A stretch of 54,015 nt of DNA from a virus (Duplodnaviria > Caudoviricetes). The notes beneath the pieces were generated by a model. It did not search any database. It was given only the letters and a program-made list of their open reading frames with translations, and was not told the origin of the DNA. Shown piece after piece: positions 12,705 to 47,701 of this stretch (position 1 is its first letter; the number at the start of each line of letters is the position of its first letter). The DNA lies in IMG/VR virus record IMGVR_UViG_3300037247_000257, positions 1 through 54,015 of that record; one strand, written 5' to 3'. A program made the translations under genes and the position numbers.

Positions 12705-13555
12705 CAGAATATGTATCTTATAGTGTTCCAAGGTATCACTTCTTTGTGTACCTTCCTAAATTGATTTATATACTGTGCTTTCTTTTCTCGCTTGTATCGT
12801 ATGTTAACTCCTCCGTATTGAGACACTTTGCTTTCTTGTATCTCAGGTTTCCACAATAACTCTTCTCCCGGTCTGTTTGCATTAGCTGAGTGCTTATCCT
12901 TATTATGGGTAAGGAATATACACTCAGATAATACCTCATCCTTGTTATCGACATAATCAGACACCATTTCAAACAAGAAACGATAATCTTCTAGCCAACC
13001 ATCATAGACTATAATAGGTGAAAAGTTTATATGAACTTCGTACCCAGCATCTATGAATGCGTCTATGGCTTTTATCCTGTCGATTATAGGTGGTGTATGA
13101 GGTTCAAGTACAGAGCTTAACTTTTGCGGCATAAGACTAAACCTAATACGTATCTTCTTTTCTGGATTATAGTCCAAGAAGTCTATAGGTATGATCTTAG
13201 TGGCAAAGCTAGCTTTTATGTTACTGTGGTTCTTAAAGTAGTTGAATATATGATTCCACTGGTGATATTTAGAGTGTAAAGCAAAGTCTTCGTTGCATGC
13301 AATGTCGTAGGTATAATACTTTGGATCCGTTTGGTTAGGCTCTTTAGGCGGCAACCATGCGGCATGAGTATTGATAGCTGTTAGTATTGCGTTTGTGTTC
13401 TTTGCTACACTTAAATCATTGTTACCAGTATGTCGTTTCATATAACAGTACGAACAATCGAGTAGACAGCCGAAGCCGAAAGACGGACTTATAAAATCCG
13501 TACTTCGGCCTGACTCTCTGATTTCAAAAGACTTTCTATTTACCGTCTTTATCAT
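12704..13555 (-). CDS. Spore photoproduct lyase-like radical SAM protein
   Basis: CxxxCxxC in GCLLDCSYCYM; FATK, RIRFSLMPQ and HINFSPII blocks typical of SplB-like proteins. Confidence 0.8.
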   Translation of the reverse strand: MIKTVNRKSFEIRESGRSTDFISPSFGFGCLLDCSYCYMKRHTGNNDLSVAKNTNAILTAINTHAAWLPPKEPNQTDPKYYTYDIACNEDFALHSKYHQWNHIFNYFKNHSNIKASFATKIIPIDFLDYNPEKKIRIRFSLMPQKLSSVLEPHTPPIIDRIKAIDAFIDAGYEVHINFSPIIVYDGWLEDYRFLFEMVSDYVDNKDEVLSECIFLTHNKDKHSANANRPGEELLWKPEIQESKVSQYGGVNIRYKREKKAQYINQFRKVHKEVIPWNTIRYIF

Positions 13556-14598
13556 TCTATCTCCTTTCTAAGTTGAACAAACCCTCTAAAGTTACCTGAC
13601 CAGCCTTCTTCAATCACTCTATCCGTAGAGCCAACCGCTTGAGTTGTTCTAGCATTGAACATCATTTCTGACCCACTCATAGCTCTAGCGCAGTGCTCGA
13701 AAGGACTCATGTGACCCATAGCTTTCAATCTATCATAAAGCTTAATATCAGCTTCATAATCATCTTTACCTTCAAAGTTTAGATAAGATACTCTAGCACA
13801 TCTAGCAGTAGCTATCTTAACTCTGCAATCTTGAATAAAACTAAAGGGTACAGATGTTTCTGCTCCTTTATATAACTCACAAATTCTAGCAGAATCAATA
13901 TTGTCTTCAAATGGTATATGCCACTCACCAGCTTTCAACTCTTTAGGTTTAGACTCATTCATAGCATCCCACATAGCTTCAGCTAGTAGAGAGATATGGA
14001 TTTCTCCTTGTCCTTTGTTGATTTTGAGCCAGTCTAAGTCACTAGTTTTACTTAGTGTTTCTTCGTTTCCTCCGTGATAGTGTTTCCAATAGTCTTTCCT
14101 CGACTTAAACTTAGAGTTCTCGTTATCTGGACTGCCATACTGAGGACATCTCAACTCAAAGAAGTTATCATACTCTGTAGCAGTTACAATACAAGTGTAC
14201 CATTGGAAAGGTTCTAAGATACGGTTTACTAGTTGTTTGGTTACTCCGTTAGAGTTCATTGTTCTAGCCATATCTAAAACACCTCTAAGACTACGTTCCC
14301 AATCACACACATGAGCCATTATTTCCGATTCTTTCTCAAAATACTCAGTGCCTTGCATACCACTATGGGTTTTTTGGAACGCTACAGGAATGAAAGGATC
14401 TTCTTCTATATCCTTAATCATTTTGCTCGCAGGTATAGCACGACTACTAGCAGCATTACGTGAGAATAAACGGTGTGTAAGTAACTCGGCATGGATAATT
14501 CTTGGATAAGAAAGGACATAGGTTGTAATCCTATTACCATGCTTGTTAACACTATCTGCAATAATCTCTGCATTAATATTCTTTTTATTCATACTCAT
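13552..14598 (-). CDS. thyX: Flavin-dependent thymidylate synthase-like protein (ThyX/Thy1)
   Basis: ELLTHRLFSRNAASSRAIP, KQLVNRILEPF, ARCARVSY, HMSPFEH. Confidence 0.8.
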   Translation of the reverse strand: MSMNKKNINAEIIADSVNKHGNRITTYVLSYPRIIHAELLTHRLFSRNAASSRAIPASKMIKDIEEDPFIPVAFQKTHSGMQGTEYFEKESEIMAHVCDWERSLRGVLDMARTMNSNGVTKQLVNRILEPFQWYTCIVTATEYDNFFELRCPQYGSPDNENSKFKSRKDYWKHYHGGNEETLSKTSDLDWLKINKGQGEIHISLLAEAMWDAMNESKPKELKAGEWHIPFEDNIDSARICELYKGAETSVPFSFIQDCRVKIATARCARVSYLNFEGKDDYEADIKLYDRLKAMGHMSPFEHCARAMSGSEMMFNARTTQAVGSTDRVIEEGWSGNFRGFVQLRKEIE

Positions 14599-15974
14599 GA
14601 CTCTGCCTCTTCTGTGTCTACTGTTCCAGAATCTTTAATGATACCTTCTAGTACTTTAAACAAGTAACCTTTCTGCTTCAAGAATTTAGGCGTTAATGAT
14701 TCACCATCGATACGAATACATACACCTTCTCTTAAGTGCATAGGAAATACAGTAGATGGATCTTCACCCATAGAAACTACACGGTTAGAAATAGCTTCTT
14801 GCTGAACATGAAAGTGTAGAGTTTCTTCTGCTTCTGACATAGCTTTAGCTTTGATTCTCTTAAGCTCAGGCACATGTTGTACTCCCATTTGCTCACATCT
14901 CATCTTAACTTGGTCCCAAGATAAGTCCATCGACACTCCGTCCATGTTAGTCATAGTCATACGATAAACAAAGACTTTACATTCTTTAGGTTGGCACCCA
15001 TAAGTAAATGATGTAGTATTACCGTAAGCTTCAACAAAGTCTTTATAAACATCTTTATCCATAAAAGACTTAAGCTTCTTGTTACCTTGAGAAGGCATGA
15101 TTAGTTTCCCATCAGGTAAATACCCAACGATCTCATAATACACAGTCTCACCTTTTTCAAGCTTATCTCTAAACAATTCTCCAGTCGTAGTCCAAATGTC
15201 GTGCTCATAATACGATTCACCTTCTTTAGCTACATCACCAATAGTCTTTGTTACTCTACGCGAACCTACTACATGCTTATAAACCATGTGTTGATTCTCG
15301 TCGTTGGTTTTAAAGAGAACTTTACTTAGTAACCAGCTAGAAAACTTCTTTAACAGATTATCAGTTTTATAAATAACTGGCAAGTTGCCCACTCTACAAC
15401 TTGTTCCATGGAGCTTTTCCGTTACGATAAGAATCGAGCCTGGCTTTACATGCTGTAAGTTTCTCATAAATTGATCAGTATCGACATGCTCTTTGAACGT
15501 AGGTACTAGGTTTTCCTTAGCTTTTCCCTGTTTGTTCCCTTGACACGGGGAATTACTTACAACTTGATACTTCTTGCAGATTTCGTAGCTTCCCCAATTC
15601 ATGAACTGTTGCCCAAGGTTACTTTTATCTGGTAATTGCTTGTCTTTGTGAGTATATTCTAGTGAACTAATTGGCATCCATAACCCAGAACATTTTACAC
15701 CTTTTAATCGAATTGGTCTAACACGTCTGCTATCTTCAAGATAACCTGTTTTTGATTCGTCTACGTTTAAGTTAGAATGTCTGTACAAGTTGTTTTTTGA
15801 ACAAAACTCGTGACTTAACTCAGTTTCACAGTCAAATAAAATACCTAGTTCACCAGCTTTGTGCTCTTTACTCACAATAACTGTTTCTCCGAATATCGTA
15901 CTACTTACGATGCGGTCGGCTCCTTCAATAGGCTGAAGGTCTTTTAGTTCCGCGATGATTGCTTCTCCTGTCAT
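14595..15974 (-). CDS. ATP-dependent RNA ligase (DRB0094/Rnl2-like)
   Basis: N-terminal PIEGADRI OB-like domain, motif I TEKLHGTS, motif IV REGVCIR, motif V LKQK. Confidence 0.85.
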   Translation of the reverse strand: MTGEAIIAELKDLQPIEGADRIVSSTIFGETVIVSKEHKAGELGILFDCETELSHEFCSKNNLYRHSNLNVDESKTGYLEDSRRVRPIRLKGVKCSGLWMPISSLEYTHKDKQLPDKSNLGQQFMNWGSYEICKKYQVVSNSPCQGNKQGKAKENLVPTFKEHVDTDQFMRNLQHVKPGSILIVTEKLHGTSCRVGNLPVIYKTDNLLKKFSSWLLSKVLFKTNDENQHMVYKHVVGSRRVTKTIGDVAKEGESYYEHDIWTTTGELFRDKLEKGETVYYEIVGYLPDGKLIMPSQGNKKLKSFMDKDVYKDFVEAYGNTTSFTYGCQPKECKVFVYRMTMTNMDGVSMDLSWDQVKMRCEQMGVQHVPELKRIKAKAMSEAEETLHFHVQQEAISNRVVSMGEDPSTVFPMHLREGVCIRIDGESLTPKFLKQKGYLFKVLEGIIKDSGTVDTEEAES

Positions 15975-16261: not shown

Positions 16262-16316
16262 ATTCTCTAGGTTTATACCTAAAAGACTGTTCCTTTTTTC
16301 ATAATACAAATTTAAG

Positions 16317-16387
16317 TTGTCCGGGGAGGGATCGAACCTCCATTCTCGGCTTCAAAGGCCGGCGTCCTGCCATTAGACGACCAGACA
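16317..16387 (-). tRNA. tRNA-Gln(TTG)
   Basis: TGTCTGG/CCGGACA acceptor, CT-TTG-AA loop, GGAGG-TTCGATC-CCTCC T arm. Confidence 0.92.
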
Positions 16388-16440
16388 ATAATACAGAGTG
16401 TTCTTTATACCGTTAAACTCTTACAAACATTCTCAATGCG

Positions 16441-16589
16441 TGGAAGTGAGCACGGTTTTCACTTACTAAGGCAAACCCGTTCGCTACCACACTCCTTCAC
16501 TATATACCGTCGCTTCATTCCATAGCAGCTTACCTTTATCACAGCGCTATAATAAAGACCACAGTATAATCCACTTAGCCGGCACTTCC
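16441..16589 (-). ncRNA. Unassigned ~149-nt structured RNA closed by an acceptor-like stem
   Basis: GGAAGTG/CACTTCC-A closing stem; internal helices TATACTGT/ACGGTATA and CTTTATTATAG/CTGTGATAAAG; G-U pairs favour the - strand. Confidence 0.55.
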
Positions 16590-16590
16590 G

Positions 16591-16662
16591 AGGTTCCACA
16601 CAGATTCGAACTGTGCTCTGCTGATTACAAGTCAGCTGCATCACCAACAATGCTTTGGAACC
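16591..16662 (-). tRNA. tRNA-Thr(TGT)
   Basis: GGTTCCA/TGGAACC acceptor, GCTGA-CTTGTAA-TCAGC anticodon arm, TTCGAAT T loop. Confidence 0.93.
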
Positions 16663-16665
16663 TTG

Positions 16666-16739
16666 TGGGTGTCTTCGGGATTCGAACCCTGCTATCCGGA
16701 AGCACAACCCGGCGTAGTCGCCCAGACTACTTAAGACAC
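16666..16739 (-). tRNA. tRNA-His(GTG)
   Basis: GTGTCTT/AAGACAC-CCA, CCGGG-TTGTGCT-TCCGG anticodon arm; T stem slightly irregular. Confidence 0.85.
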
Positions 16740-16741
16740 AG

Positions 16742-16813
16742 TGGAGAGAGAGGGATTTGAACCCCCGACTCCCAGATTTTCAGTCTGATACTCTACCCCT
16801 GAGTTACCTCTCC
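16742..16813 (-). tRNA. tRNA-Phe(GAA)
   Basis: GGAGAGG/TCTCTCC-A, TCAGA-CTGAAAA-TCTGG, TTCAAAT T loop. Confidence 0.93.
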
Positions 16814-16902
16814 ATGGCTCCAGAGATTTTAGATCTTTACTCCAGAACTGATCAGCTTTTACCCACACTCCTCGTGGGTCCTCACAACCAGCTAAGTCGT
16901 TG

Positions 16903-16978
16903 TCTAGGTGGCAAGATTCGAACTTGCGTGCTCGTCCTTCCAAGGGACGCGAGATAAACCGGACTCCTCTACACCTAG
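16903..16978 (-). tRNA. tRNA-Pro(TGG)
   Basis: CTAGGTG/CACCTAG-A, CGTCC-CTTGGAA-GGACG, GCAAG-TTCGAAT-CTTGC. Confidence 0.93.
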
Positions 16979-16982
16979 ATAT

Positions 16983-17019
16983 AAAAAAAACCCTAAGCTC
17001 TTGGTGGAACTTAGGGTTT
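16983..17019 (-). terminator. Attenuator terminator of tRNA operon 1
   Basis: AAACCCTAAGTTC-CACCAA-GAGCTTAGGG followed by T8, ending 4 nt before tRNA-Pro. Confidence 0.88.
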
Positions 17020-17040
17020 AGTTAGTCAAAACAGCAGAAA

Positions 17041-17115
17041 TCAATCACACACACCTAAGTTCCGTCCTATAAAGGTCGGTTGAAATGGCGTATTATGTTG
17101 TGCTATCTTGTTCAT
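17041..17115 (-). CDS. Leader peptide 1 (MNKIAQHNTPFQPTFIGRNLGVCD)
   Basis: 24-codon ORF; codons 6-15 CAA CAT AAT ACG CCA TTT CAA CCG ACC TTT; contains the antiterminator GGAACTTAGG (17054-17063). Confidence 0.8.
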   Translation of the reverse strand: MNKIAQHNTPFQPTFIGRNLGVCD

Positions 17116-17119
17116 ATGG

Positions 17120-17151
17120 TAAACTTAGTCAAAGCTTTTTACTTTTGCAAC
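17120..17151 (-). promoter_or_regulatory. Bacteroidota-type promoter for leader 1
   Basis: GTTG-N20-TAAGTTTA versus consensus TTTG-N19-21-TAnnTTTG; ends 4 nt before the leader ATG. Confidence 0.5.
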
Positions 17152-17349
17152 CATATACTTGATATTATTACAAGAAACTCTTCTTTTGTAACCATTTATC
17201 ACATCTGTTGTGTGTGTTCTTATCATTAAGGTACCACAATCTGTCTGGTGTATTATTACACCATACTGCAAATAACCTGTGTTACTTACAAAGACTTTAT
17301 CTCCTACAAACAAGTCTTTACCGTTTATATCTGTTTCTGTTATTTTCAT
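17125..17349 (-). CDS. Small YopX/KOW-like beta protein
   Basis: DINGKDLFVGDKV motif. Confidence 0.55.
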   Translation of the reverse strand: MKITETDINGKDLFVGDKVFVSNTGYLQYGVIIHQTDCGTLMIRTHTTDVINGYKRRVSCNNIKYMVAKVKSFD

Positions 17350-17570
17350 AATACCATGATCATTTTTTCAGAGTTACCGTTTTGAACCAGTCTCCATAAA
17401 CCTCTGTTACCATCAGGATCAATAAGAATATTACCGTTTTTGTATCTTCTTACAGTACCTGTCCAAATTCGATGTCCCCAATCACCGTAAGCAACTCTTG
17501 CTCCGACTTTAATTTTTTTTCCTTTTACGTCTAGATGTAATTCTGACTCCTCCATTTCTTGTAAGTGCAT
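17346..17570 (-). CDS. Small YopX/KOW-like beta protein
   Basis: DVKGKKIKVGARVAY motif. Confidence 0.55.
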   Translation of the reverse strand: MHLQEMEESELHLDVKGKKIKVGARVAYGDWGHRIWTGTVRRYKNGNILIDPDGNRGLWRLVQNGNSEKMIMVL

Positions 17571-17694
17571 ATTGTTCTTTTACGTGTTTATGAAAAGCGG
17601 AATTTAATTCTTCTACAAAAGCATCGCCTCCGTAAGCAACAAAGTCTCCACACTGAACTTTGTTTAATCCATTTTTATCTCTTGTAACTTTCAT
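17509..17694 (-). CDS. Small protein related to the two downstream ORFs
   Basis: DKNGLNKVQCGDFVAY motif; ATG directly after tRNA-Ser(GCT). Confidence 0.45.
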   Translation of the reverse strand: MKVTRDKNGLNKVQCGDFVAYGGDAFVEELNSAFHKHVKEQYALTRNGGVRITSRRKRKKN

Positions 17695-17695
17695 G

Positions 17696-17781
17696 TAGAG
17701 AGACCGAGATTCGAACTCGGGGGCCCCAGAAGGACCACTCCCTTAGCAGGGGAGCGCAATCGACCGCTCTGCCATCTCTCT
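17696..17781 (-). tRNA. tRNA-Ser(GCT)
   Basis: AGAGAGA/TCTCTCT acceptor, CTCCC-CTGCTAA-GGGAG, long variable arm; discriminator is A rather than the usual G. Confidence 0.92.
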
Positions 17782-17787
17782 AAGATA

Positions 17788-18030
17788 CCGGTTCTCGTAC
17801 CGGCAAACGCTCTTTGATATGCTTAAGGCTATTATGACGTGGTTCGCACACACGCGTGTCGCACCTAAGCAGCATACCCTCATCTTCCTCCGAGTAGAGG
17901 TAAGTATATATCGCGACACTCTAAAGTTTCAGGTGGAAAGATTGTTACACCTTCAATTATTGACCGGTGAGAGACAAACTCCCGGTCACTCTTTCCTAAA
18001 GACGCCTCCTTGTCTGGCTGGGTCACCCCT
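17788..18030 (-). ncRNA. Unassigned ~240-nt multibranch structured RNA between the two tRNA-Ser genes
   Basis: Helices TGACCGG/CCGGTCA, GTGTCGC/GCGACAC, AGGTG/CACCT, CCGGT/ACCGG and closing GGCGTCTTT/AAAGAGCGTT; no credible sense ORF. Confidence 0.5.
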
Positions 18031-18034
18031 ACTG

Positions 18035-18120
18035 CAGAGGGACAGAGATTCGAACTCTGAACAGTGTTACCTGCTACTGGTTTTCAAGACCAGCTCCTCG
18101 TCCAACCACGGACTCCCTCT
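18035..18120 (-). tRNA. tRNA-Ser(TGA)
   Basis: AGAGGGA/TCCCTCT-G, CTGGT-CTTGAAA-ACCAG, long variable arm, CAGAG-TTCGAAT-CTCTG. Confidence 0.92.
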
Positions 18121-20293: not shown

Positions 20294-20715
20294 TTGTTCT
20301 TTTCTTTAAAGTAATTTAATAATTCAACCCAATCACGGTCTGGGTCAAAACCGGCTTTATCGTCTAGCAAGACGTTGAAATAAGGCTTTTTATCAAAGTT
20401 CTGAAACTCATTGTTCTCAAGGCCCATACTAATCTGTACAAGACGCCAAGGCGTCATAGCTATATCACAAGACATAAAGTATTCTAAGTAGAACGCTTTC
20501 GCTTCTTGTGGACTACAAGTATACATGTACATCATAATATTAGGATTCTTACTCATTAACTGTAAAGTTTCTTTTGCTTTCGCGTAAAAACCTGTAGACA
20601 GTTGAGTTGAGTAAGTGGGTTCGAAAACAGTGCCATGGAGATCCACGGCAACTGCTATCTTATCCCATCCTCGGTGTTTCATCAAATCAAAAGCTTTGTC
20701 AAACACTTGTATCAT
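20290..20715 (-). CDS. HAD-superfamily hydrolase-like protein
   Basis: VAVDLHGTV, YTCS and KKPYFNVLLDDKAGF motifs. Confidence 0.7.
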   Translation of the reverse strand: MIQVFDKAFDLMKHRGWDKIAVAVDLHGTVFEPTYSTQLSTGFYAKAKETLQLMSKNPNIMMYMYTCSPQEAKAFYLEYFMSCDIAMTPWRLVQISMGLENNEFQNFDKKPYFNVLLDDKAGFDPDRDWVELLNYFKEKNK

Positions 20716-22127
20716 AACTTTGCTCTGTTAATTATGTTAGGCCATACTGGCGCAGACATGATTTTACCATTTTCAAAGACTACTTCTAAGACAGATTCAG
20801 CACCAGGAGCACTATTCTGTACTGTTCTGAAACCTTCTTGAGAACGTTCTAACGCAAGGAAGCCAAGTTTACTCTTCTTAAAAGAAGCATGTTTGTCCCC
20901 ATTACCATCAATTTCTGTTGGAGCTTTGAATACATCTTTCCATTCACCGTTAACACAGATGGCAGAACACTTAAACGCGAACTTCTGTGTATCTCGATTG
21001 ACTTTCTGCAGTAAAGCGCCACCCATCCCAAAGGCTAGGTTCTCTGTACTGTATCCAATCATGTTTATGTACTCAAGAGTCTCTCTCAGACTATCATAGT
21101 TCATACCGTCTCCTTGGATAACTCTTATCTTAGGATTCAAGATCTTGTAACCATTAACAACTTCACCACCAAATACCTTCCATAATTCAGAAAGTACTAC
21201 TTGCAATGTCATCTTAATGTCACCAGAATCAGGTCTAACTACTAAAACACCGTCTCTCGAAATAATCTCAGTTTTCAATGACGCCCAGTGTGTTCTACAC
21301 GCTTCTTGTATATCATAAGAATCTGAAACACAAGCTACTAATCCTGTTGGGTATTTTTCGAGCATGTTGCGATAAGCATCCACCTCATTTTGTTTTCCCC
21401 ATGACGTAATAGTACTGTGTTCAGATGCCGGGATAGAATAAGAAGGCATCATTGATGTTTTGTAGTATTCGTGAATGAAAGGTATTGCTACCAATGTATC
21501 AGAACCTACAAAGTTGATTAAGTGAGCTGCCCCACCTAGTGCTGCAGTTTCTACACTACTTGCACCTCTAAAACCAAAGTCATGCATCTTAAAAGACAAA
21601 GCAGTCTCAAATTCAGCATGACTAGGATAGTCGGTTGTTTCTTTTAAACTTTTACTAATTAGCTTCTTGCACTCTCTACTTAATGTTGCCACTGTAGTAG
21701 GATACCATACTTGTAATAACAAAGTCTCTAAGAAGTTAGTTAACCAAAAACACTTAGGATCAGTGTTCATAACCGTCATTAAGACGTTACTTACACCTAC
21801 AACAGTACCTTCTGGCACAGCTTCTATACGAACTGGTAATCTTCCACCGTGGTTTTCTACAATATGCATCCAACCTTCAATGTTAAATGTCCCCTTGCCC
21901 ATATGCGAGTCTACTATAGTTGACGCATGTAATACATCAGCTTTAGTAATTCTGTAACCTTCTAAATACTGTTTAAGTATATAGTGCAAACCAAAGAATA
22001 CTGTTTCTTCAAACTTTCCTCCTCGGCTCTCTAAGTATGAATAAACATACTCTGTACCTTCAGGGTACTGTCTTGCATGTGACTGCTTATAAGAGTCAGT
22101 CAACAACATGATATTATTGTTCCACAT
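20712..22127 (-). CDS. nadV: Nicotinamide phosphoribosyltransferase
   Basis: TDSYKQSH, HDFGFRG, PASEHS, RPDSG, IQGDG and FGMGG motifs. Confidence 0.95.
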   Translation of the reverse strand: MWNNNIMLLTDSYKQSHARQYPEGTEYVYSYLESRGGKFEETVFFGLHYILKQYLEGYRITKADVLHASTIVDSHMGKGTFNIEGWMHIVENHGGRLPVRIEAVPEGTVVGVSNVLMTVMNTDPKCFWLTNFLETLLLQVWYPTTVATLSRECKKLISKSLKETTDYPSHAEFETALSFKMHDFGFRGASSVETAALGGAAHLINFVGSDTLVAIPFIHEYYKTSMMPSYSIPASEHSTITSWGKQNEVDAYRNMLEKYPTGLVACVSDSYDIQEACRTHWASLKTEIISRDGVLVVRPDSGDIKMTLQVVLSELWKVFGGEVVNGYKILNPKIRVIQGDGMNYDSLRETLEYINMIGYSTENLAFGMGGALLQKVNRDTQKFAFKCSAICVNGEWKDVFKAPTEIDGNGDKHASFKKSKLGFLALERSQEGFRTVQNSAPGAESVLEVVFENGKIMSAPVWPNIINRAKL

Positions 22128-28362: not shown

Positions 28363-28925
28363 AGTTCTACTTTTTGTTTGATTACTAAAGTGTTTCTGTT
28401 CCAAGCTTTTTTATCACAGAGTTCCTGTAATATTTGTAGTGCTTGTTCTACTTTTTTTTGTTCTTCTTCTGTCATTGCAGGATGCTCTCGGTAAGAGTCT
28501 TCCAGATTCCTACATCGTTTCCAAAGTTGAAACTTTAAATAGTTTCTTTTCTTAACAACGTACTCATCAAAAGGAGTAATTCTTTCCGTAAACACTTGAG
28601 AGTAAGTATCTGCTGAACGCCTCAAGGTACTAAAATAGCATGAAACAAACCAACCTGGTTTAGGTAAAGTTGTATCAACTGGCACAGCAAGATTCATACT
28701 TGCCCATTCTGCCATGTTATACTTAGTTGAGTATTTACAAAATATAGCTACTATATTGTTTATCACTCTGTTTTTAGCAGGACCTACTAGCGCATTTTTT
28801 TGCGTAGGCGTTTTAGCTCTTGCCCACGGTGAAATATTACTATCTTTCTCACCGCTTTCAGCTATTAATCTCTCCTGATTTGACAGAAATATCCTCGGTG
28901 TCTTGAATTGTCTCAGATTGTCCAT
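28359..28925 (-). CDS. Hypothetical protein inserted between rIIA and rIIB
   Basis: 188 aa ORF; start uncertain because it overlaps the rIIA 3' end. Confidence 0.5.
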   Translation of the reverse strand: MDNLRQFKTPRIFLSNQERLIAESGEKDSNISPWARAKTPTQKNALVGPAKNRVINNIVAIFCKYSTKYNMAEWASMNLAVPVDTTLPKPGWFVSCYFSTLRRSADTYSQVFTERITPFDEYVVKKRNYLKFQLWKRCRNLEDSYREHPAMTEEEQKKVEQALQILQELCDKKAWNRNTLVIKQKVEL

Positions 28926-31665
28926 ACTCTAACTTTTTCCAACTTATCATTTCCTGTATTAGTAAAGTTGTTTCCATATCAAGCTCTTTACGTTCACCAT
29001 CTGTTAGAATATCCATCTTGTTAAACACTGCCTTTAAAGGGCCAACATAAGCTATTAAAGCATTTGCCATGTTTATAAGATCACTATTAACAGCTAATCC
29101 ACCTGTTATACCTGTTGGCAAACTTGCTTGTTTTACGTACTCAGCTATAGTTTCTGGAGTTTCATCAGATTGAGCCATATCTTGAAGCTTTTCTATACTA
29201 TCAAGATACTTTAAGAAATCTTGGTGATGCTCGTTCATAGCAAAACGCTTACTATAATTAGAAAGATCTCTATGATATCTTGCTACATATTTCTTTAACT
29301 TAATATAATCTTCATGAGCTTCTTGATTGAAGTTCGCAAAGTTTTCTAAAAAAGCTAAAGATTTCATAGTAGAATCTATCTTTCTTGCTGTGTTCCAGTG
29401 TACTATCGCATTGTCCATAATTACATTGCAGCCCGTTACTTGACCTTTTTCATTTTTTACTAATACAGCTTCTCCGAAGAAATCGTCAATATGCTTATGC
29501 ATACTAAAGTGTTTCTTATTGCTCTTTGAAACTGCTACTACTTTATAAAACTCATTATCAAACCTATCATTACTTCCGTAAATTAAAGGCGTGTTTTCAC
29601 TACGCGCTTCGTTTACATCTTTACAAAGAACTCCGTTCATTCTGTCAAGAATGTGGCAAGCGTATTGTAACTTAGACTCATCGTGTTGAAAGCCATAGTA
29701 CAAAGTACCTTTATAATCTTTGATTTCTTGAAACTTAGGTTCACGCTTATTCATCTGATAAGTTTTACTGATCGTATCCTCCCTATCATAAGGTATATAA
29801 CGCTCAACAAAAGTGTTACAGACAACTCTCATCTCGAGTTCACGCTTTTCTTTAGCTGTGAGTTTTACTTCTTCTTCTATCGAATTACCATCTTCGTCTA
29901 CTTTACCTTGCTCAATCTTTGTTAAGTTTTTGATATACTCTTGTGGTACATCTAACTCATCATAGCTTTTGTAAGATTCTGATAACTTTAGAAGGTTAAT
30001 CACTTCATCCCTATCGGCTTTAGCTTTCTTAATCCAAGCCGCTTTGTTTTGAAGCTGGAGCTTGTTTTTAGTTATCATAGCCGAAGCAGCATGCTCGATA
30101 GTTTCATCGAGTTTAGGTGATATCGTTATGAAAGTGTTACCAGATGACTGATCAGCACAGTAAACATCTTTATAACGAGAAGCTTGAGAAGTCTTAAAAT
30201 AAACAGTATCAGTGTTTATCAAATTCCACCCAATATTCTTATCATCACGATTTACTTGATAAAGTCCTTCTTTGTCTTTAAACTTAGTACTTTTTACAAT
30301 ACTACAGTGCTTAAATACACTAGATGGAATACCAAAGCGTATTTTCGTACCTTTAAACTTAGGTTGAACATTCTGTAAATCGACTATTCGACTTAATCGC
30401 CCTATGGTATTGTTCACTCCTGAATAAGATACGATGTTTTTACACGCATTTAACCACTTTATAAAGTCAGTTTGTTGTAACTCTTTCTCTACAAGGCCAG
30501 TAGCCTCTTCTTGAGCTATTTCAAACTGCTTCTTTAAGAATACTCGTGTAGCAGCAGTCCATCGAACAGTTTCTCGAGAAGGAACAACGTCAACTCCGTC
30601 GCTTATCACAACTTCATTACCTTCGTCATCTTCAACAACCTGTCGGATAGGACATTTTACACCTATATCTCCATGTAAATCCTCTAACTCCATCTCTTTG
30701 AAGTCTATGTGTCCATAACACACACCAGTCTGACTCTCAACGTTATCACCACCTTTAATGATGACGATATGCGGTTTAGAATAAGGACTGTTCTTAGAGA
30801 TAATTAGATTCGCTGAGTTATACATAGTATCAGCTTTAAAAGATATTTCACTTTTATAGCCATCTACACTCTCTTCGTAAAACTTAACGTTTCTAAAATA
30901 AAGTAGCTGAGTTTTTACAGCCTCGATATAGTTTGTTTTGTGGTGCTTAAGAGCCGGCACCTCGACTTGTGTATAATTCTTCTCTTCAGTACGTTCACCA
31001 TGAATGACAAACCCATCAGAGAATGTGTAAGGGATATTTGCTTCTCCCTTATCTAAATCAAGCGCTCCGATCATAGAGTTAATCTTACGATTAAACACCT
31101 GAATCTTGTACTTGATACCGTTGTACACTGTAGTAAGGATATAAAATCCTGTACCATCAGATGTAGCTAGACCAACCTTGGCCCCTAGTCCGAATGCTCC
31201 TAAAGCATCCTTACGATTACGTTTAGTAGAGTAACCAATTTCTAATACACCCTCAAGACGACCTGAGCCAATACCTACTCCATAGTCACGAACTATGAAA
31301 CTATCACAACGTCCTCCTCCTTCTCCTGAACGGTAGATAATCTCTACATCATTCTTGTCTTGATTAAGGTGGTTACGATCGTAATAAGTTGGGTCCCACT
31401 TGGAGTCTGCATAAAGCGCCCCGTCTCGTTCGATAAAGTAATCACTTGCTTTAGCACTACCTGAGAGTATTTCGATAGCTCTCTCTTTCTCACTCTGCGC
31501 ATCAACTGCGTTCGCCGTGAGTTCACGTACCGTACTTTGAATCGGTTTCTGATATTGCTGCGCTTGGACAATGTCCATGACCATGCCTTCTGCCGCTGCA
31601 TTAATCTTTCTCCTCTTACCTGCTGTTCCTTGGACTTCACGTTTTTCTACTTCTTGTATAGCCAC
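28858..31665 (-). CDS. rIIA: rIIA-like protein with GHKL/Hsp90-like ATPase domain
   Basis: RELTANAVDA, DYGVG, STKR...GAFGLGAK, VVPSRE. Confidence 0.8.
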   Translation of the reverse strand: MAIQEVEKREVQGTAGKRRKINAAAEGMVMDIVQAQQYQKPIQSTVRELTANAVDAQSEKERAIEILSGSAKASDYFIERDGALYADSKWDPTYYDRNHLNQDKNDVEIIYRSGEGGGRCDSFIVRDYGVGIGSGRLEGVLEIGYSTKRNRKDALGAFGLGAKVGLATSDGTGFYILTTVYNGIKYKIQVFNRKINSMIGALDLDKGEANIPYTFSDGFVIHGERTEEKNYTQVEVPALKHHKTNYIEAVKTQLLYFRNVKFYEESVDGYKSEISFKADTMYNSANLIISKNSPYSKPHIVIIKGGDNVESQTGVCYGHIDFKEMELEDLHGDIGVKCPIRQVVEDDEGNEVVISDGVDVVPSRETVRWTAATRVFLKKQFEIAQEEATGLVEKELQQTDFIKWLNACKNIVSYSGVNNTIGRLSRIVDLQNVQPKFKGTKIRFGIPSSVFKHCSIVKSTKFKDKEGLYQVNRDDKNIGWNLINTDTVYFKTSQASRYKDVYCADQSSGNTFITISPKLDETIEHAASAMITKNKLQLQNKAAWIKKAKADRDEVINLLKLSESYKSYDELDVPQEYIKNLTKIEQGKVDEDGNSIEEEVKLTAKEKRELEMRVVCNTFVERYIPYDREDTISKTYQMNKREPKFQEIKDYKGTLYYGFQHDESKLQYACHILDRMNGVLCKDVNEARSENTPLIYGSNDRFDNEFYKVVAVSKSNKKHFSMHKHIDDFFGEAVLVKNEKGQVTGCNVIMDNAIVHWNTARKIDSTMKSLAFLENFANFNQEAHEDYIKLKKYVARYHRDLSNYSKRFAMNEHHQDFLKYLDSIEKLQDMAQSDETPETIAEYVKQASLPTGITGGLAVNSDLINMANALIAYVGPLKAVFNKMDILTDGERKELDMETTLLIQEMISWKKLEYGQSETIQDTEDISVKSGEINS

Positions 31666-41516: not shown

Positions 41517-41597
41517 TAGAGAGTACAGGATTCGAACCTGCAAATTGCTTACGATCAAGCGAGTCATTCCTTGGTATACCAATTCCGCCAACTCTCT
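41517..41597 (-). tRNA. tRNA-like RNA with Leu-type D loop and no canonical anticodon arm
   Basis: AGAGAGT/ACTCTCT-A acceptor, GGCGGAATTGGTATAC D region, GCAGG-TTCGAAT-CCTGT T arm; no 5-bp stem with a 7-nt anticodon loop can be drawn. Confidence 0.6.
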
Positions 41598-42336: not shown

Positions 42337-42353
42337 AATTAGATTTTTTAAAG

Positions 42354-42727
42354 TGGAGACGCAGGGAGTCGAACCCTGGTCCAGCGAAGCACTATGTCCA
42401 CACGATATACGAACGTAAAGGTTTTAAAGCTCCACAGCTACATCTTATTTACTGTAGGTGCCAAACAGAGCAGCGTTTTACATCTCTACCCGATGGATTC
42501 TAGTGTGACTAGTAACTTGTGCAACTTTCTGTTCCTCCGTAGTTACAACGGGCGCGATCCTATGCTGCTACAGCTACAGGTGCCACAAGGGCTCTCGCTT
42601 CGGTAAGTAAACTTACCATGATTGTCTCGTCGTTTCCGATTAAACAGTTGGAACGTTTTTACAGTGTCTCATTCCATCACTGGCCGCGTGTGTACATAGT
42701 TACAACCTGTCAATTCCGGTCGTCCCC
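42354..42727 (-). ncRNA. ssrA: tmRNA
   Basis: GGGGACG/CGTCTCC-A acceptor with G3-U70, GGAATTGAC D-loop analogue, CAGGG-TTCGACT-CCCTG T arm; internal tag frame 42637-42560 GNDETIMVSLLTEARALVAPVAVAA*. Confidence 0.93.
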
Positions 42728-42731
42728 ATGT

Positions 42732-42771
42732 AAAAAGAACTCGGTACATGAATTAACTTTACCGAGTTCTT
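42732..42771 (-). terminator. Terminator-like hairpin directly upstream of the tmRNA
   Basis: AAGAACTCGGTA-13 nt-TACCGAGTTCTT followed by TTT. Confidence 0.65.
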
Positions 42772-43005
42772 ATAATTATTATTCTTTCTTTGCTTTTTAG
42801 TTACTTCGTTTTGTTTTATGAGTAAAAAACGAATAGTATAGTAGCAGACAGAAACCCAAATTCTGCGCCACCTCCTTGCTGTTACTCGCTTGTAACTTGC
42901 CTCCTAGTCAAGTATCGATCGCTACTGAACTGGTTTGACAAGTAATCAAGTATAACACTACCATGCTCATGACAAGTAGTATCAATGGTATAAGTATCAA
43001 CTTTA

Positions 43006-43350: not shown

Positions 43351-43734
43351 TTATTCATAAGATCTTATGTCATAAGTATTACCTGCTGACATAAATATGT
43401 AATCTTCGACCCATGTTCTAGAGCCTGAGTAATCATAAGTATAAGCGACAAATATATCTCTCGATCCGTTGTCAAAGTCTCTTAATACATACTCTTTTGT
43501 AACTTGACCCGAAGGTATTGTGTCCCACGTCCACTGACGTATACCATCAACAGGCACAGATGTTTGCATTATAGCACCATCTACATTGTCTGCTTTATAC
43601 CACGTTACTGTAATCAAATCATCAGTTTCACTAGATGATGTAGTTGGAGCAACTGTGTCGTCGTTGTCCTTATTGCACGATATCATACAAGCACCTAGTG
43701 ACAGTATGATAAGATTAGTAATAATAGTTTTCAT
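43351..43734 (-). CDS. Lipoprotein
   Basis: Signal peptide with lipobox-like MISC followed by an acidic NKDNDD segment. Confidence 0.7.
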   Translation of the reverse strand: MKTIITNLIILSLGACMISCNKDNDDTVAPTTSSSETDDLITVTWYKADNVDGAIMQTSVPVDGIRQWTWDTIPSGQVTKEYVLRDFDNGSRDIFVAYTYDYSGSRTWVEDYIFMSAGNTYDIRSYE

Positions 43735-44254
43735 TATTGTTTTCTAAGCTAGAATTAGCTTTTTTGTGGTAAAACGGTTTATCGTTAAATGACGTACTAG
43801 ATCTAATTTCACCAAACTCTTTATGAATTACATAAGTAAGTGTTCCGTAGCATTCTTGATCATTTATCCACCATCTAAGAAAGTCTTTTTCAGTTTTAAT
43901 TATTACTTCTTCGTCAAACTTTAAGAAATCACCTGACTGATCACAAAGCCATACAGGTCTACCACAAGCTAAACTGTGTTCTATTTCTTTTGCTGAACCT
44001 CTACCAATACTTCCATTACAGTCTGCTTCTACTACAATGTGTAAGCTTGTATCACCCATTACTGTCTGACAGTTTGGATAATCAGCTTTACTGTATCTCT
44101 TATTACCTGTAATATTTACTTGATGTGAGTATGCGCGAGATACTTTTGGATTTTTGCGTAAATCAGCTAACGCCTTGCGTTGTTCACCCCAAGGCATGGA
44201 ATTAGGAAAGGACACATAAACTGATATGCCCTTTCCGTTTTGATTCTTTAACAC
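43715..44254 (-). CDS. Nucleoside deoxyribosyltransferase-like fold protein
   Basis: VYVSFP...IGRGSAKEIEHSLACGRPVWL. Confidence 0.4.
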   Translation of the reverse strand: MLKNQNGKGISVYVSFPNSMPWGEQRKALADLRKNPKVSRAYSHQVNITGNKRYSKADYPNCQTVMGDTSLHIVVEADCNGSIGRGSAKEIEHSLACGRPVWLCDQSGDFLKFDEEVIIKTEKDFLRWWINDQECYGTLTYVIHKEFGEIRSSTSFNDKPFYHKKANSSLENNNENYYY

Positions 44255-44649
44255 TAACCTGGTAAGTTGTCGTTAAATGATAAACCTTCTTTCTCTAAGT
44301 AAGAGTAACCAAACAGTTTGTTTAAGTTAGCATCACTAACTCTTACTTTCTGCTTAGCTATGAAAAGCTTGTGAGTTAAGTCGTCATACTTCTTAGCCCA
44401 AGTCTTACCATCAAATGATGACTCATCAGTACGCTTAGCGTCCATTAAGTTGTTTGATACATTGATGTTCTCCATCTTTTGGAGTTCGATCGTAAATTCA
44501 TCAATCTTTTCTACTTGATCACTTACAATAGATTCATATGCTTTCTTTGTAGAACGCGCAATGATTGAACCTGTCTCTTTGTTGATGTCTTTTCCATCTC
44601 TACCTAGTAAAGTATCGAAAAGCGCTTTTGTTGTTTTAGCTGCTGCCAT
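44254..44649 (-). CDS. Hypothetical coiled-coil protein
   Basis: 131 aa ORF. Confidence 0.55.
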   Translation of the reverse strand: MAAAKTTKALFDTLLGRDGKDINKETGSIIARSTKKAYESIVSDQVEKIDEFTIELQKMENINVSNNLMDAKRTDESSFDGKTWAKKYDDLTHKLFIAKQKVRVSDANLNKLFGYSYLEKEGLSFNDNLPG

Positions 44650-44656
44650 TATCTTA

Positions 44657-44929
44657 TTATCTTCCCTTTGCTTGTCTTAGTTGTGCGTCAGACAAATCAC
44701 GCTTTGCTTGTGTTCTGATATAGTTGAATATTAACCAAAAGGTAATACCACCAAGAGTAAACAACCATCCGAGGATTTGTGTTATATCTTTTGTACCAGG
44801 TACATTAGCAAATGTACAAAGAAGTACCACTAATCCAAACACAATTTGGACTAATGATACTTTTTTTCCTAATGACAAAGTTTTTACTCTGTCATGTGCT
44901 TTCCTAGTCTCTTGACTATCGCACATCAT
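44657..44929 (-). CDS. Two-TM membrane protein
   Basis: Two hydrophobic helices. Confidence 0.55.
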   Translation of the reverse strand: MMCDSQETRKAHDRVKTLSLGKKVSLVQIVFGLVVLLCTFANVPGTKDITQILGWLFTLGGITFWLIFNYIRTQAKRDLSDAQLRQAKGR

Positions 44930-45091
44930 GCCGCTTCTTTTAAAGATTCAGCTTTAGTTACTTCTGCTTCTTGGCTAACTAACACCAAGTCAGTGTATTG
45001 TACACACACTGCATCATTCATCGTATCTGATACGACGAGAAGCCCTAATGGTCCTTTTATCATTTTGTTTAAATTTGGTTACTCTTTGATA

Positions 45092-45346
45092 CTAGTTACT
45101 TGATAGGATGAGGACTTGAGCTTTGTTCATAAACTCAACCACATCTTTTTGTGAGAATAGTTCTTCTTCTACACTGTCCCGATGCATTAAAGCTAGGACT
45201 CTGTCATCTCCAGATGAAGTAAGACGAGCTATTCTAGTTAGCTCGCCTATTAGATGACGTTTGGCCATCAAGAATTCAATGTACATTACTTGTGGCATTT
45301 TCCAGGGCTGTGAAACCCGTTGACTTGACAATAACCACTTTTGCAT
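45092..45346 (-). CDS. Hypothetical protein
   Basis: 84 aa ORF. Confidence 0.45.
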   Translation of the reverse strand: MQKWLLSSQRVSQPWKMPQVMYIEFLMAKRHLIGELTRIARLTSSGDDRVLALMHRDSVEEELFSQKDVVEFMNKAQVLILSSN

Positions 45347-45636
45347 TTTGAAGATGCCTCTTTTTTGTCTCCGCTACCTAGTAGAAGAGACAACGCTAAT
45401 AAAAGTTTCATGATGAGAATGTTATAAGGTGTAAATCCTTATCGAGTTGTGTATGATATTCCACAGCATTTAAAGGAGGATATATTTTCTTTAGCTCTGT
45501 GTTAATTGCACGTAGTTGACCATCTTGATCAACCACGTACCTAATGAATGACATGTGTTTTACTTTCATAAGTAAAGGTATAATACAGTTGCTGTGTACG
45601 CTACGCACTTAACAACGATTGCTATAATAAACAACC

Positions 45637-45912
45637 TCATATTACGATGGTTATTATAGTTGGAAGACAGCAAACAAATACTATTATTCCGAATAATATT
45701 CCTTTCTCCGACTCATCTAAGTCTGCTTCTTGTGCTATTATTGTTGAACCTCCAGCGCAACACATCATAGCAACTGTTATCATCATTAAAACTATCAGTT
45801 TTGTGAACTGATCATCTCCTGCGACATTCATCGCACCGTAAACCCCAATCATCCCGATTAAGATTAACGTCAAGGCACTAAGACCTTTAAATATTGTAAG
45901 CATTGATTTCAT
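45637..45912 (-). CDS. Three-TM membrane protein
   Basis: Three hydrophobic helices; ATG at 45912-45910 lies inside hammerhead stem I. Confidence 0.6.
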   Translation of the reverse strand: MKSMLTIFKGLSALTLILIGMIGVYGAMNVAGDDQFTKLIVLMMITVAMMCCAGGSTIIAQEADLDESEKGILFGIIVFVCCLPTIITIVI

Positions 45913-45972
45913 AGACACATAGTGTTTCGTCTTGCCTCATCAGTATGATAGTTTATAGTCCGCAAGAGGACT
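45909..45972 (-). ncRNA. Type I hammerhead ribozyme with loop-loop pseudoknot
   Basis: TCATA-CTGATGA-G(GCAAGA)C-GAAA-CAC(TAT)GTG-TC^TATGA; upstream hairpin AGTCC-TCTTGC-GGACT has a loop complementary to loop II. Confidence 0.85.
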
Positions 45973-46037
45973 TTAAAAATGAGCAGTTTAAGACATGCTC
46001 AGGTCACAACCAAATCAACGTTTGGTTTAATGTTCTC

Positions 46038-46241
46038 CTAGGATAATCTAGGATTAACTTTTAACTGGTTTAAAGAGTAGTCTGCCAACTCTTCATCATC
46101 AGAATAGACATACATAGTGAAGTTGTCTCCATCTTTTGACTCTTCTCTCATAGAGATGACTTCATCTCTAAGTAAGTCATGCCACTCTTCTATCCCGTGA
46201 CTCCATGTTTGGACTAAGTATTCTTTTATTTCTTTTCTCAT
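46038..46241 (-). CDS. Small acidic early protein
   Basis: From MRKEIKEY; A-rich upstream sequence. Confidence 0.5.
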   Translation of the reverse strand: MRKEIKEYLVQTWSHGIEEWHDLLRDEVISMREESKDGDNFTMYVYSDDEELADYSLNQLKVNPRLS

Positions 46242-46441
46242 AATAGTTTGTTTTAGCTTGTAAATTAGGAATATTAAACACACTGGACGTTGCTTACTTA
46301 GTGGCAACTACTATAGTTTCATGACTCAGTGTGATTGTTTACGAGTTAATATTAAATCTTGTTAGTTTGTTTCGCTTGAATAGTCAGAATGCTACAAACA
46401 GCTATAGTTGTTATGACGCCTTGTGTATCAAGCACGAGCTT

Positions 46442-46460
46442 AAAAGCCCCCGAAGGGGCT
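46442..46460 (-). terminator. Terminator hairpin
   Basis: AGCCCC-TTCG-GGGGCT followed by TTT. Confidence 0.65.
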
Positions 46461-46466
46461 CATTGA

Positions 46467-46742
46467 CTAGTACTGTAACTGCTTCAACGGACTACCGTCT
46501 TTAGCTGTGCGTACTTCACCTGTTTCCAGGTCTACGATATCCACTAACTTGAATCCGGTTTGGATTTCAAATTCATATCCTTGTTCTAGAGTCGAGACAT
46601 CTTGACCCGTCATCATTGCTAGACCTGAGATAGGTACATAAGCAGGTTTAGAAGAGAACTCTAAAGGATTACCTTTGACTAAGATTAACGCTGATTTTTC
46701 CGAACGGACAGAGTGAAACTTTGCTGTTGTTGTAGTTTGCAT
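46467..46742 (-). CDS. Hypothetical protein, first gene of the leftward arm
   Basis: 91 aa from MQTTTTAK. Confidence 0.6.
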   Translation of the reverse strand: MQTTTTAKFHSVRSEKSALILVKGNPLEFSSKPAYVPISGLAMMTGQDVSTLEQGYEFEIQTGFKLVDIVDLETGEVRTAKDGSPLKQLQY

Positions 46743-47071
46743 GACGAATATATTTAAGGTGAAACAAACAGACGCCCCCACCCGAGGACGTCGAAGCTTA
46801 AGGGGTGTTGACTTTAAAGTACCCATCAAACTAACACTCTCTGAAAATATACCGGAAGGGGGGGGGTGTTTTTATATACCCAGAAAAAATATAACCATGA
46901 TATAGTAACTAGTGTTCACCATGACTTATCATCTTGCGGGCAAAGCAAGTACAATAAGAAGAATAACTAATAGAACAGATAAGAAGAGGGTAAATGAAAG
47001 AAACTGTAAAAATCATGCTCTATGATCTGGAAACGTACAAAATCATCACTTCTTAAGAAAGCCGACTTACT

Positions 47072-47108
47072 CGGTGTGTTATATTCATTATAACGGTGTG
47101 TTATATTC
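47072..47108 (+). repeat. 15-bp direct repeat CGGTGTGTTATATTC x2 (22-bp period)
   Basis: Exact copies at 47072-47086 and 47094-47108 in the divergent non-coding gap. Confidence 0.85.
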
Positions 47109-47166
47109 TTTACATCATACAGCCAACTTTTTACACCGCAATGTTTTACTTTTATAAAAAAAGTCC

Positions 47167-47174
47167 TACATTTG
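47167..47174 (+). promoter_or_regulatory. Bacteroidota -7 promoter element TACATTTG
   Basis: Exact TAnnTTTG match ending 4 nt before ATG 47179. Confidence 0.55.
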
Positions 47175-47178
47175 AGAT

Positions 47179-47394
47179 ATGGTACAGAACATTATATCAC
47201 ATTTAACAAAAAAGGGGAACAAGCCGGGAGAGGTTGTAGTTATCCTAGACAATTCTGAGTACACTATTACTAATGTTACCAGAGTATTGGACAAGGTTCA
47301 ATTAACTGTCGAAAAAGTTATTCCTACTGATTCTGAAGAAGTTGAAGGAGTAGATCAAGAAGTAGAAACTCAAGAAGAAGAAGATCATGAGTAA
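47179..47394 (+). CDS. Hypothetical protein with acidic tail
   Basis: 71 aa; first gene of the rightward arm. Confidence 0.6.
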   Translation: MVQNIISHLTKKGNKPGEVVVILDNSEYTITNVTRVLDKVQLTVEKVIPTDSEEVEGVDQEVETQEEEDHE

Positions 47395-47701
47395 AGTTCC
47401 ATTTAAACCAAATGGTATGCAGTTACTGGTCCAAGTACCAGCGCATGTATACAAACCTAAAGTAAACGACAAAGGCGTTGCTATGGTTATGACTGACGCA
47501 ACAGTTAAATCGCTTAGAACTGACTACCTTACTAAAGGTGACAAGTTAGAAGTAATGGCTGTAGGTGACGAATGTAAGTTCGTTAAAGTAGGAGACTTTG
47601 TTTCTGTAAATACAAGAGGTATGGTAGAGCTTAACCTAGATGGTATTGACGAGCCTTTTACATTAGTGCGTGAAGCAGAAGTTCTTGGAAAATTCTTATA
47701 G
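47387..47701 (+). CDS. groES: GroES/Cpn10-like co-chaperonin
   Basis: FKPNGMQLLV, VMAVG...VKVGDFV, LVREAEVLG. Confidence 0.75.
   Translation: MSKVPFKPNGMQLLVQVPAHVYKPKVNDKGVAMVMTDATVKSLRTDYLTKGDKLEVMAVGDECKFVKVGDFVSVNTRGMVELNLDGIDEPFTLVREAEVLGKFL

Follow-up and report, generated by a model that had tools for sequence, protein, structure and literature searches.

A divergent, sub-threshold RAGATH-1 hammerhead ribozyme ahead of a small membrane-protein gene in a distant relative of crAss-like phages

The ribozyme locus and its relation to RAGATH-1

The virus record IMGVR_UViG_3300037247_000257 (Duplodnaviria; Caudoviricetes), analyzed here over its whole length of 54,015 nt and referred to as the window, carries on its minus strand an intergenic element that is co-oriented with both of its neighbours, an upstream open reading frame (ORF) of 67 aa and a downstream ORF of 91 aa for a predicted membrane protein (Table 1). 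Judged from homology and base pairing, the element is a divergent RAGATH-1 hammerhead ribozyme, which scores below the threshold of the corresponding Rfam family RF03152, has an architecture that is already known and is probably active. An earlier note on this DNA had described a complete hammerhead core with a 5-bp stem I, a 1-bp stem II and a short stem III, all of which are present where the note had placed them. In effect, the note thereby rediscovered the RAGATH-1 hammerhead architecture.

Table 1. Positions of the ribozyme parts, the neighbouring features and the RNA repair genes in the window.
Feature	Position	Strand	Details
Whole element	45973-45909	-	AAGUC-CUCUUGCG-GACU-AUAAACUA-UCAUA-CUGAUGA-G(GCAAGA)C-GAAA-CAC-UAU-GUG-U-C/UAUGA (slash, predicted cut)
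5' hairpin (P0)	45957..45973	-	Stem AGUC/GACU (45972-45969 with 45960-45957), loop CUCUUGCG
Linker	45949..45956	-	AUAAACUA; counterpart of the conserved UAUAAA(A) linker in RAGATH-1 members
Stem I, 5' strand	45944..45948	-	UCAUA; pairs with UAUGA 45913-45909, 5 bp
Core CUGAUGA (C3-A9)	45937..45943	-	From sequence, RF03152 alignment and core-pattern search
Stem II and loop II	45929..45936	-	Single pair G10.1-C11.1 (G45936-C45929) closing GCAAGA
Core GAAA, stem III and C17	45914..45928	-	GAAA 45928-45925; stem III A-CAC/GUG-U; C17 is C45914
Stem I, 3' strand	45909..45913	-	UAUGA; includes AUG 45912-45910
Membrane-protein ORF, 91 aa	45637..45912	-	Frame from AUG 45912-45910; the record's own gene call gives the same 91 aa
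Terminator-like hairpin	45975..46000	-	GAGCA-N10-UGCUC, A-UUUUU; from sequence and fold
Upstream ORF, 67 aa from ATG	46038..46241	-	Would remain on the 5' cleavage product
Polynucleotide kinase-phosphatase (PNKP)	10573-11565	-	PF25109, 132 bits
RNA ligase	14595-15974	-	Found among the window proteins

All nucleotides that define a hammerhead core (C3-U4-G5-A6-N7-G8-A9, G12-A13-A14, the pair A15.1-U16.1 and H17) are present, and the topology is type I with an open-ended stem I and a closed stem III. Stem II consists of one G-C pair, as in the consensus structures of RF03152 and of our own covariance model R1 (see below), and closes a loop of 6 nt, where RAGATH-1 has 6-7 nt. Stem III comprises 4 bp counting A15.1-U16.1 (A45925-U45915) and ends in the triloop UAU. 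With GUC (45916-45914) as cleavage triplet, the predicted scissile bond falls between C45914 and U45913. On the 5' side, AGUC..GACU-AUAAAC aligns to model positions 1-25 of RF03152 and is followed by the open stem I. P0, which may be extended by a pair C45968-G45961, aligns to the first hairpin of both RF03152 and R1 and is formed in the minimum-free-energy fold too. Its loop includes UCUUGC (45967-45962) as first strand of the pseudoknot, and loop II, GCAAGA (45935-45930), is the second strand and the exact complement of the first. The spacing of 14 nt between the hairpin and CUGAUGA is 1 nt above that of the commonest RAGATH-1 form, and the same spacing is found in three other members (L078, L089 and L109 in our numbering of loci).

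A permissive Rfam scan of 45700-46150 (451 nt) aligned RF03152, the RAGATH-1 hammerhead, over its complete model (1-77/77) with 39 bits and an E-value of 4.3e-5; for the same match E is 0.0052 if the whole window is searched with all 4227 Rfam families and 1.2e-6 with RF03152 alone. A default scan of the window at gathering thresholds reported transfer-messenger RNA (tmRNA) and tRNAs only and missed the ribozyme, because its score is below the gathering cut-off of 56.3 bits. The low score is in part explained by the fact that covariance models ignore pseudoknots; in addition, the altered loop letters and the stem III loop of 3 nt, compared with 14 nt in the RF03152 consensus, cost points. None of the classic hammerhead models (types I, II, III, HH9 and HH10) matched at E<=10 in the scan of 45700-46150, where RF03152 was the sole hammerhead family listed, and this is expected since stem II has a single base pair. 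Thus, the Rfam covariance search that the earlier note had proposed as a check returned a hammerhead from end to end, but one under its cut-off and none of the classic type. The RAGATH-1 hammerhead was described by Weinberg et al. in Nat Chem Biol in 2015; the term RAGATH-1 was not found in the literature that we searched, and both the pseudoknot and the gene context may have been reported before in the original description. That we treat the pseudoknot as a defining feature of RAGATH-1 goes back to the members gathered here.

As an RF03152 search at E<=1 also gave matches in 2 of 14 control genomes, none of them above the cut-off, and the window element itself scores under it, we sought independent support. 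The strict pattern CTATAAA-N6-10-CTGATGAG-N5-8-CGAAAC was found in 16 stretches of viral contigs, all alike in layout, and R1 was built from 7 of these members with the window left out. R1 recovered 16/16 of the strict-pattern loci together with additional copies in L006, L012 and L017. A looser pattern gave at least 113 stretches in viral contigs, and R1, run on 100 new loci with L123-L125 left out, confirmed 34 elements at E<=0.01 among the matches listed. On five of the source records RF03152 produced 8 matches, of which 5, spread over 4 of these records, exceed the cut-off, and therefore we regard the collected loci as genuine RAGATH-1 members. In the 54-kb window, searched with filters off, the element is the sole match of R1 with 37.6 bits and an E-value of 3.3e-6, and the runner-up reaches 12.9 bits (E 0.85). 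The window contains the core pattern CTGATGAG-N5-8-CGAAA at a single site, compared with 0/100 dinucleotide-preserving shuffles, and if an 8-mer and a 6-mer are drawn at random with the composition of the window, they share a Watson-Crick match of 6 bp with a probability of ~0.0011. The member most similar to the window element among the matches listed, L041, reaches 42.1 bits with RF03152 and is thus also under the cut-off; its short stem III, with 3-4 bp and 3-4 nt in the loop, recurs in L009, L076, L081 and L106.

The earlier note had also proposed a kissing contact between GCAAGA and UCUUGC, and the collected members bear this out. From 54 aligned rows, two without the TATAA linker were removed, and 43 distinct sequences remained once duplicates had been merged. 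Column-wise counting of pairs was dropped since gaps were placed differently in the 4-bp and 5-bp classes of the pseudoknot, and instead we determined how long a Watson-Crick helix the 5' hairpin region can form with either the cognate loop II or the loops II of the other members. A helix of at least 4 bp was found in 38/43 cognate compared with 538/1806 non-cognate pairings, and one of at least 5 bp in 29/43 compared with 156/1806. The pairing is realized by more than 20 distinct sequences, for example CCAG:CUGG, CCUAG:CUAGG, CCCAA:UUGGG, CUAGG:CCUAG and GCUUG:CAAGC. According to the model-fitted alignment, the window pairs in the same columns as the RAGATH-1 members, with CUUG:CAAG replacing CCAG:CUGG and one more pair on either side, resulting in UCUUGC:GCAAGA with 6 bp; pairings of the CUUG:CAAG type also occur in L041 and L006. 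Taken from this covariation, the kissing contact is a covarying tertiary contact of RAGATH-1 that has been kept in the window through compensatory changes.

Position of the cut and the downstream reading frame

The first AUG of the 91-codon frame follows the predicted cut after 1 nt, exactly as in the earlier note, and the RF03152 alignment agrees with the note in pairing this AUG in stem I before cleavage. The note's description of the downstream gene as a membrane protein with three transmembrane segments is matched by three hydrophobic segments in a Kyte-Doolittle scan (residues ~4-32, 35-60 and 70-91). The ORF has no Pfam match and no relative in viral contigs, and a collection of 5.8 billion proteins contained its own copy only. 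Alternative in-frame starts are AUG 45903, 9 nt further on, and GTG 45918 inside stem III; we regard AUG 45903 and AUG 45912 as equally possible starts.

The cut sites of the other members were surveyed in 47 distinct elements that could be parsed (4 rows were unparseable and 3 duplicates were removed), and a downstream ORF was accepted if it was ATG-initiated, began within 300 nt and spanned at least 40 codons, a minimum that was lowered to 15 codons where the frame is still open at the end of the locus. GUC serves as cleavage triplet in 30 of the 47 elements, and 38 are followed by such an ORF. The distance from the cut to the start is 19-31 nt in 22/38, behind an A-rich leader without Shine-Dalgarno motif, 44-88 nt in 10/38 and further in 5/38. 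This count is descriptive and not a test, as the lineages are not independent and L046 and L048, both among the 22, are almost the same. Among the matches listed, the window element is the sole one of the 47 in which the cut abuts the AUG of a long ORF, and because this position is unlike that of the other members, the family traits may not hold in the window. The stem I strand UAUGA is also found in L033, L057, L062 and L094, where its AUG opens only a short frame; in L033, L057 and L094 the gene ATG follows 24-48 nt after the cut, and no downstream ORF was found in L062. As UAUGA is common to these members, the AUG of the window may be inherited ribozyme sequence that was taken up by the ORF or is merely in frame with AUG 45903. 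The genes downstream of RAGATH-1 elements have a median length of 76 aa (30 complete ORFs) and are unrelated to each other. Only 6 of the downstream ORFs contain a hydrophobic segment, and therefore a membrane protein is not a theme of RAGATH-1.

Phage and genomic setting

The record is estimated to be 42% complete. The large terminase shares 32.5% identity with its counterpart in Cellulophaga phage phi14:2 (Crassvirales), and 145 records with matching terminases have organism and host tallies dominated by Bacteroides, Flavobacterium, Cellulophaga and crAss-like phages. As the DNA polymerase is also ~35% identical to crAss-like polymerases, the protein comparisons identify the window phage, which is marine, as a distant relative of the crAss-like phages of Bacteroidota and make a host in this phylum likely. 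Few of 32 gene starts in the window that were checked by eye have a Shine-Dalgarno-like motif. We found nothing linking crAss-like phages with hammerheads in the literature searched, and RF03152 gave no match in phi14:2, which among cultured phages has the nearest terminase.

The genes are oriented on the minus strand from 10573 to 46829 and on the plus strand from ~47179, so that the ribozyme lies about 1 kb into a leftward block. The terminator-like hairpin ends 1 nt ahead of the ribozyme; owing to its loop of 10 nt, it was passed over by a consensus terminator scan. A consensus promoter scan of the window stayed at background level (10 found, 12.6 expected). A palindrome, UCCUAGGAUAAUCUAGGA, at 46036-46053 overlaps the stop codon of the upstream ORF. 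This ORF has four weak relatives in viral contigs (L018-L021, 41% identity over 37 aa), and there is no ribozyme near any of them.

A close relative of the ribozyme locus, in which conservation in place could be checked, was not found. In particular, 45300-46700 has no blastn match among 50,697 phage records, and the exact 20-nt core plus loop II has none in viral contigs. The gene at 44254-44649 has no relative in viral contigs either; one on a metagenome contig of 1041 nt was found, which stops short of the ribozyme. Among 185,579 species genomes, three contigs contain the strict pattern, none of which is a match of R1, and they look like chance matches. In the public run X1, a marine metagenome that was probably made from DNA and was searched as contigs, a relative that is 85-93% alike covers 43567-45051 and 46412-47694. 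The X1 contigs leave the part between 45170 and 46338 uncovered, which includes the ribozyme, the membrane-protein ORF and the 67-aa ORF and may be a variable island or an assembly gap.

PNKP and RNA ligase act on 5'-OH and 2',3'-cyclic phosphate ends, and their classical role is tRNA repair. As the earlier note had pointed out, both are encoded in the window; together they look like a T4-style RNA repair set, and their position near a cluster of seven tRNAs (16316-18120, minus strand) fits with tRNA repair. A search for PF25109, validated on the window itself, found it in 0/5 other RAGATH-1-bearing virus records, two of which are complete. The two enzymes could chemically act on hammerhead products, and nothing ties them to the ribozyme. 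The tRNA cluster comprises Gln, Thr, His, Phe, Pro and two Ser, and a weak further tRNA-like match with 31.9 bits lies at 41517-41597 (minus strand). The tmRNA is encoded at 42351-42875 (minus strand; Rfam 76 bits) with the tag peptide GNDETIMVSLLTEARALVAPVAVAA according to ARAGORN. Accessory genes of the window, all on the minus strand, include an RIIA-like gene (28858-31665), a nicotinamide phosphoribosyltransferase (20712-22127) and a spore-photoproduct-lyase-like radical SAM protein (12704-13555).

Two observations concern other phages with RAGATH-1 elements. The crAss-like phage cr131_1 (NC_055902.1; L126 and L127) has four R1 matches, at 95860-95933, 96569-96638, 1-62 and 413-504, all on the minus strand and located at both ends of the linear record together with tRNA-Gln, tRNA-Met and small hypothetical genes. 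This arrangement suggests that the ribozymes process a transcript of tRNAs and small genes. L006 and L012 contain repeated short hairpins with the conserved loop UUCGUGAGAA followed by U-runs, which are found between small genes near the RAGATH-1 elements and may be a phage-specific terminator or processing signal.

Role of the cleavage and comparison with known ribozymes

We are confident that the element is a real ribozyme that was recently or still is active, as far as this can be read from sequence. With more reserve, we think it probable that it is a divergent RAGATH-1 ribozyme which releases the membrane-protein cistron from the upstream RNA with a defined 5' end. Its most likely role would be to cut a leftward polycistronic RNA at the 5' edge of this cistron. 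This reading draws on sequence and structure homology, pseudoknot covariation, gene context and family spacing, from which we infer the production of the RNA, its cleavage and any effect on stability or translation. During transcription of the leftward block between the 67-aa and the 91-aa ORF, the P0 loop would pair with loop II as the RNA emerges, and the pseudoknot would substitute for a true stem II by keeping stems I and II side by side. The core would then catalyze the attack of the 2'-OH of C45914 on the next phosphate, which would yield an upstream product that ends in a 2',3'-cyclic phosphate and retains the ribozyme, and a downstream product that starts with 5'-OH-U-AUG-AAA. After cleavage, the AU-rich stem I would melt and the membrane-protein cistron would be freed from the upstream RNA, its 5' end being defined at the first AUG or 10 nt before the second.

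Several findings weigh against this reading. The RF03152 score is 17 bits short of the gathering cut-off, matches at E<=1 also turned up in control genomes, a close relative of the locus is missing from the collections searched, and the position of the cut sets the element apart from the members surveyed. Stem I is weak (-1.8 kcal/mol as duplex) and so is stem III, the nested hammerhead fold reaches -6.6 kcal/mol compared with -11.2 kcal/mol for an alternative fold of the same 65 nt, and a fold of 116 nt is not better than that of shuffles (z = -0.85). Furthermore, the terminator-like hairpin with its U-run upstream of the ribozyme means that the latter may be transcribed only by read-through. 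The pseudoknot contributes about -6.3 kcal/mol as a free duplex, and only with it do both folds become comparable; the energetics are weak and say little, and folding neither supports nor contradicts a ribozyme. The same points could be taken together as signs of a chance look-alike or of a decayed, inactive relic without present function, since the score and the control matches are sub-threshold, stems I and III are weak, another fold competes and no conserved relative of the locus was found. We consider this very unlikely, because every core nucleotide is intact, the pseudoknot is even lengthened to 6 bp (p ~0.001), the core pattern is absent from all shuffles, an independent model finds the element with an E-value of 3.3e-6, and its context is the typical one of a phage, an intergenic position and co-oriented neighbours.

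If the ribozyme is real, its cleavage could also be negative or neutral for the gene, either by removing any leader and thus keeping the expression of a potentially harmful membrane protein low or because translation begins later, at AUG 45903 or at Met21 (45852), and the cut is ordinary inter-cistronic processing whose overlap with an open frame is fortuitous. The usual distance of 19-31 nt suggests that start regions need this space, and the window element leaves none; in-frame alternatives are available, the ORF has no relatives that would fix its N-terminus, and the upstream hairpin would already limit transcription into the gene. In turn, the first hydrophobic segment (4-32) spans Met21 and thus favours an early start, and the frame is free of stops from the cut site onward, so that this explanation seems rather unlikely to us. 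The earlier note had suggested that self-cleavage sets the translation or stability of an early membrane protein through an essentially leaderless mRNA, and that the phage PNK and ligase could act on the ends. Spelled out with the PNKP step, the cut would make a truly leaderless mRNA with a 5'-OH end (U-AUG), whose translation depends on this end and possibly on phosphorylation by PNKP. This would be in line with the cut 1 nt ahead of the first AUG, with the gene call of the record at AUG 45912, with the predicted pairing of this AUG in stem I prior to cleavage, with the presence of PNKP and RNA ligase in the window and with a Bacteroidota-like phage in which few Shine-Dalgarno-like motifs imply that start selection need not use one. 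Moreover, hammerhead self-cleavage in the 5' untranslated region (UTR) of eukaryotic RNA viruses is reported to be essential for initiating translation (PMC13725137). Translation control as a built-in design is nevertheless weighed against by the family spacing, in which the window stands 1/47 and other members leave a leader of 19-31 nt, and by the occurrence of UAUGA in members whose AUG opens a short frame, so that it may be inherited ribozyme sequence and not a start by design. In addition, AUG 45903 shares the frame, and PNKP is absent from 5/5 other RAGATH-1-bearing records and adjoins the tRNA cluster, fitting tRNA repair. Leaderless mRNAs that begin with a 5'-OH are reportedly translated poorly in E. 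coli, which we count as a further point against, and we judge a translation that depends on the leaderless end to be unlikely. A still more specific variant, in which the ribozyme was shifted onto the start codon and phage PNKP sets the time at which the 5'-OH leaderless mRNA becomes translatable or stable, is very unlikely in our view; if true, a ribozyme and an end-healing enzyme would form a timing switch for a phage gene. Behind this variant lies a wider reading at the level of the family, according to which RAGATH-1 ribozymes in phages whose hosts rarely rely on Shine-Dalgarno pairing would serve to manufacture defined, unstructured 5' ends at a fixed distance of 19-31 nt before the start codons.

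The element adds a sub-threshold RAGATH-1 member that is overlooked by routine Rfam annotation, and it indicates that the pseudoknot of this class tolerates a full change of sequence. Two facts can be tested, namely that the usual cut lies at this distance before the starts of small phage genes and that one natural variant cuts at the start codon, and comparing both cut positions in a Bacteroidota host could reveal if a 5' end made by a ribozyme has any bearing on translation or on the stability of the RNA. Should the element do no more than trim transcripts, it is an ordinary representative of a class that is already known.

To our knowledge, there is no evidence for a similar hammerhead-enabled initiation of translation in bacteria or DNA phages. 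The type I hammerheads in the 5' UTR of fungal and plant RNA viruses resemble the window element in cleaving just upstream of a coding region, which there is tied to translation of the 3' product, but these are RNA viruses of eukaryotic hosts with cap-independent translation (PMC13725137). The roles of self-cleaving ribozymes of bacteria and phages were still largely unknown according to a 2019 review. According to Perreault et al. (2011; PMC3088659), hammerheads flank genes in prophages, and in the haloarchaeal phages HF1/HF2 a transcript 5' end lies within 3 nt of the hammerhead site upstream of the start codon of a helicase. The window element is like these in its position within a phage polycistronic transcript just ahead of a gene, and they differ from it in architecture and host, with none reported there to cut at a start codon. 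The same paper describes a hammerhead with a single-pair stem II that cleaves fast at 0.5 mM Mg2+ and in which pseudoknot mutants are inactive and compensatory mutants are active again. Both this ribozyme and the window element make up for a single-pair stem II with a Watson-Crick pseudoknot, which brings stems I and II into alignment; however, theirs is of type II with an open stem II and a pseudoknot from loop I to the 3' tail, whereas in the window stem I is open and the pseudoknot runs from loop II to an additional 5' hairpin. Like RF03152, the element is of type I and has a 5' hairpin, a UAUAAA linker, a CUGAUGA-G-loop-C-GAAA core in which stem II is a single pair, the pseudoknot at the same alignment positions and a phage setting between co-oriented small genes. 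It differs from this family in a pseudoknot of 6 bp (UCUUGC:GCAAGA) instead of the usual CC(N)AG:CU(N)GG with 4-5 bp, in a minimal stem III of 4 bp with a triloop, in a linker that is 1 nt longer, in a score of 39 bits at a cut-off of 56.3 bits, and in a cut that abuts the first AUG of the ORF rather than lying 19-31 nt upstream of it.

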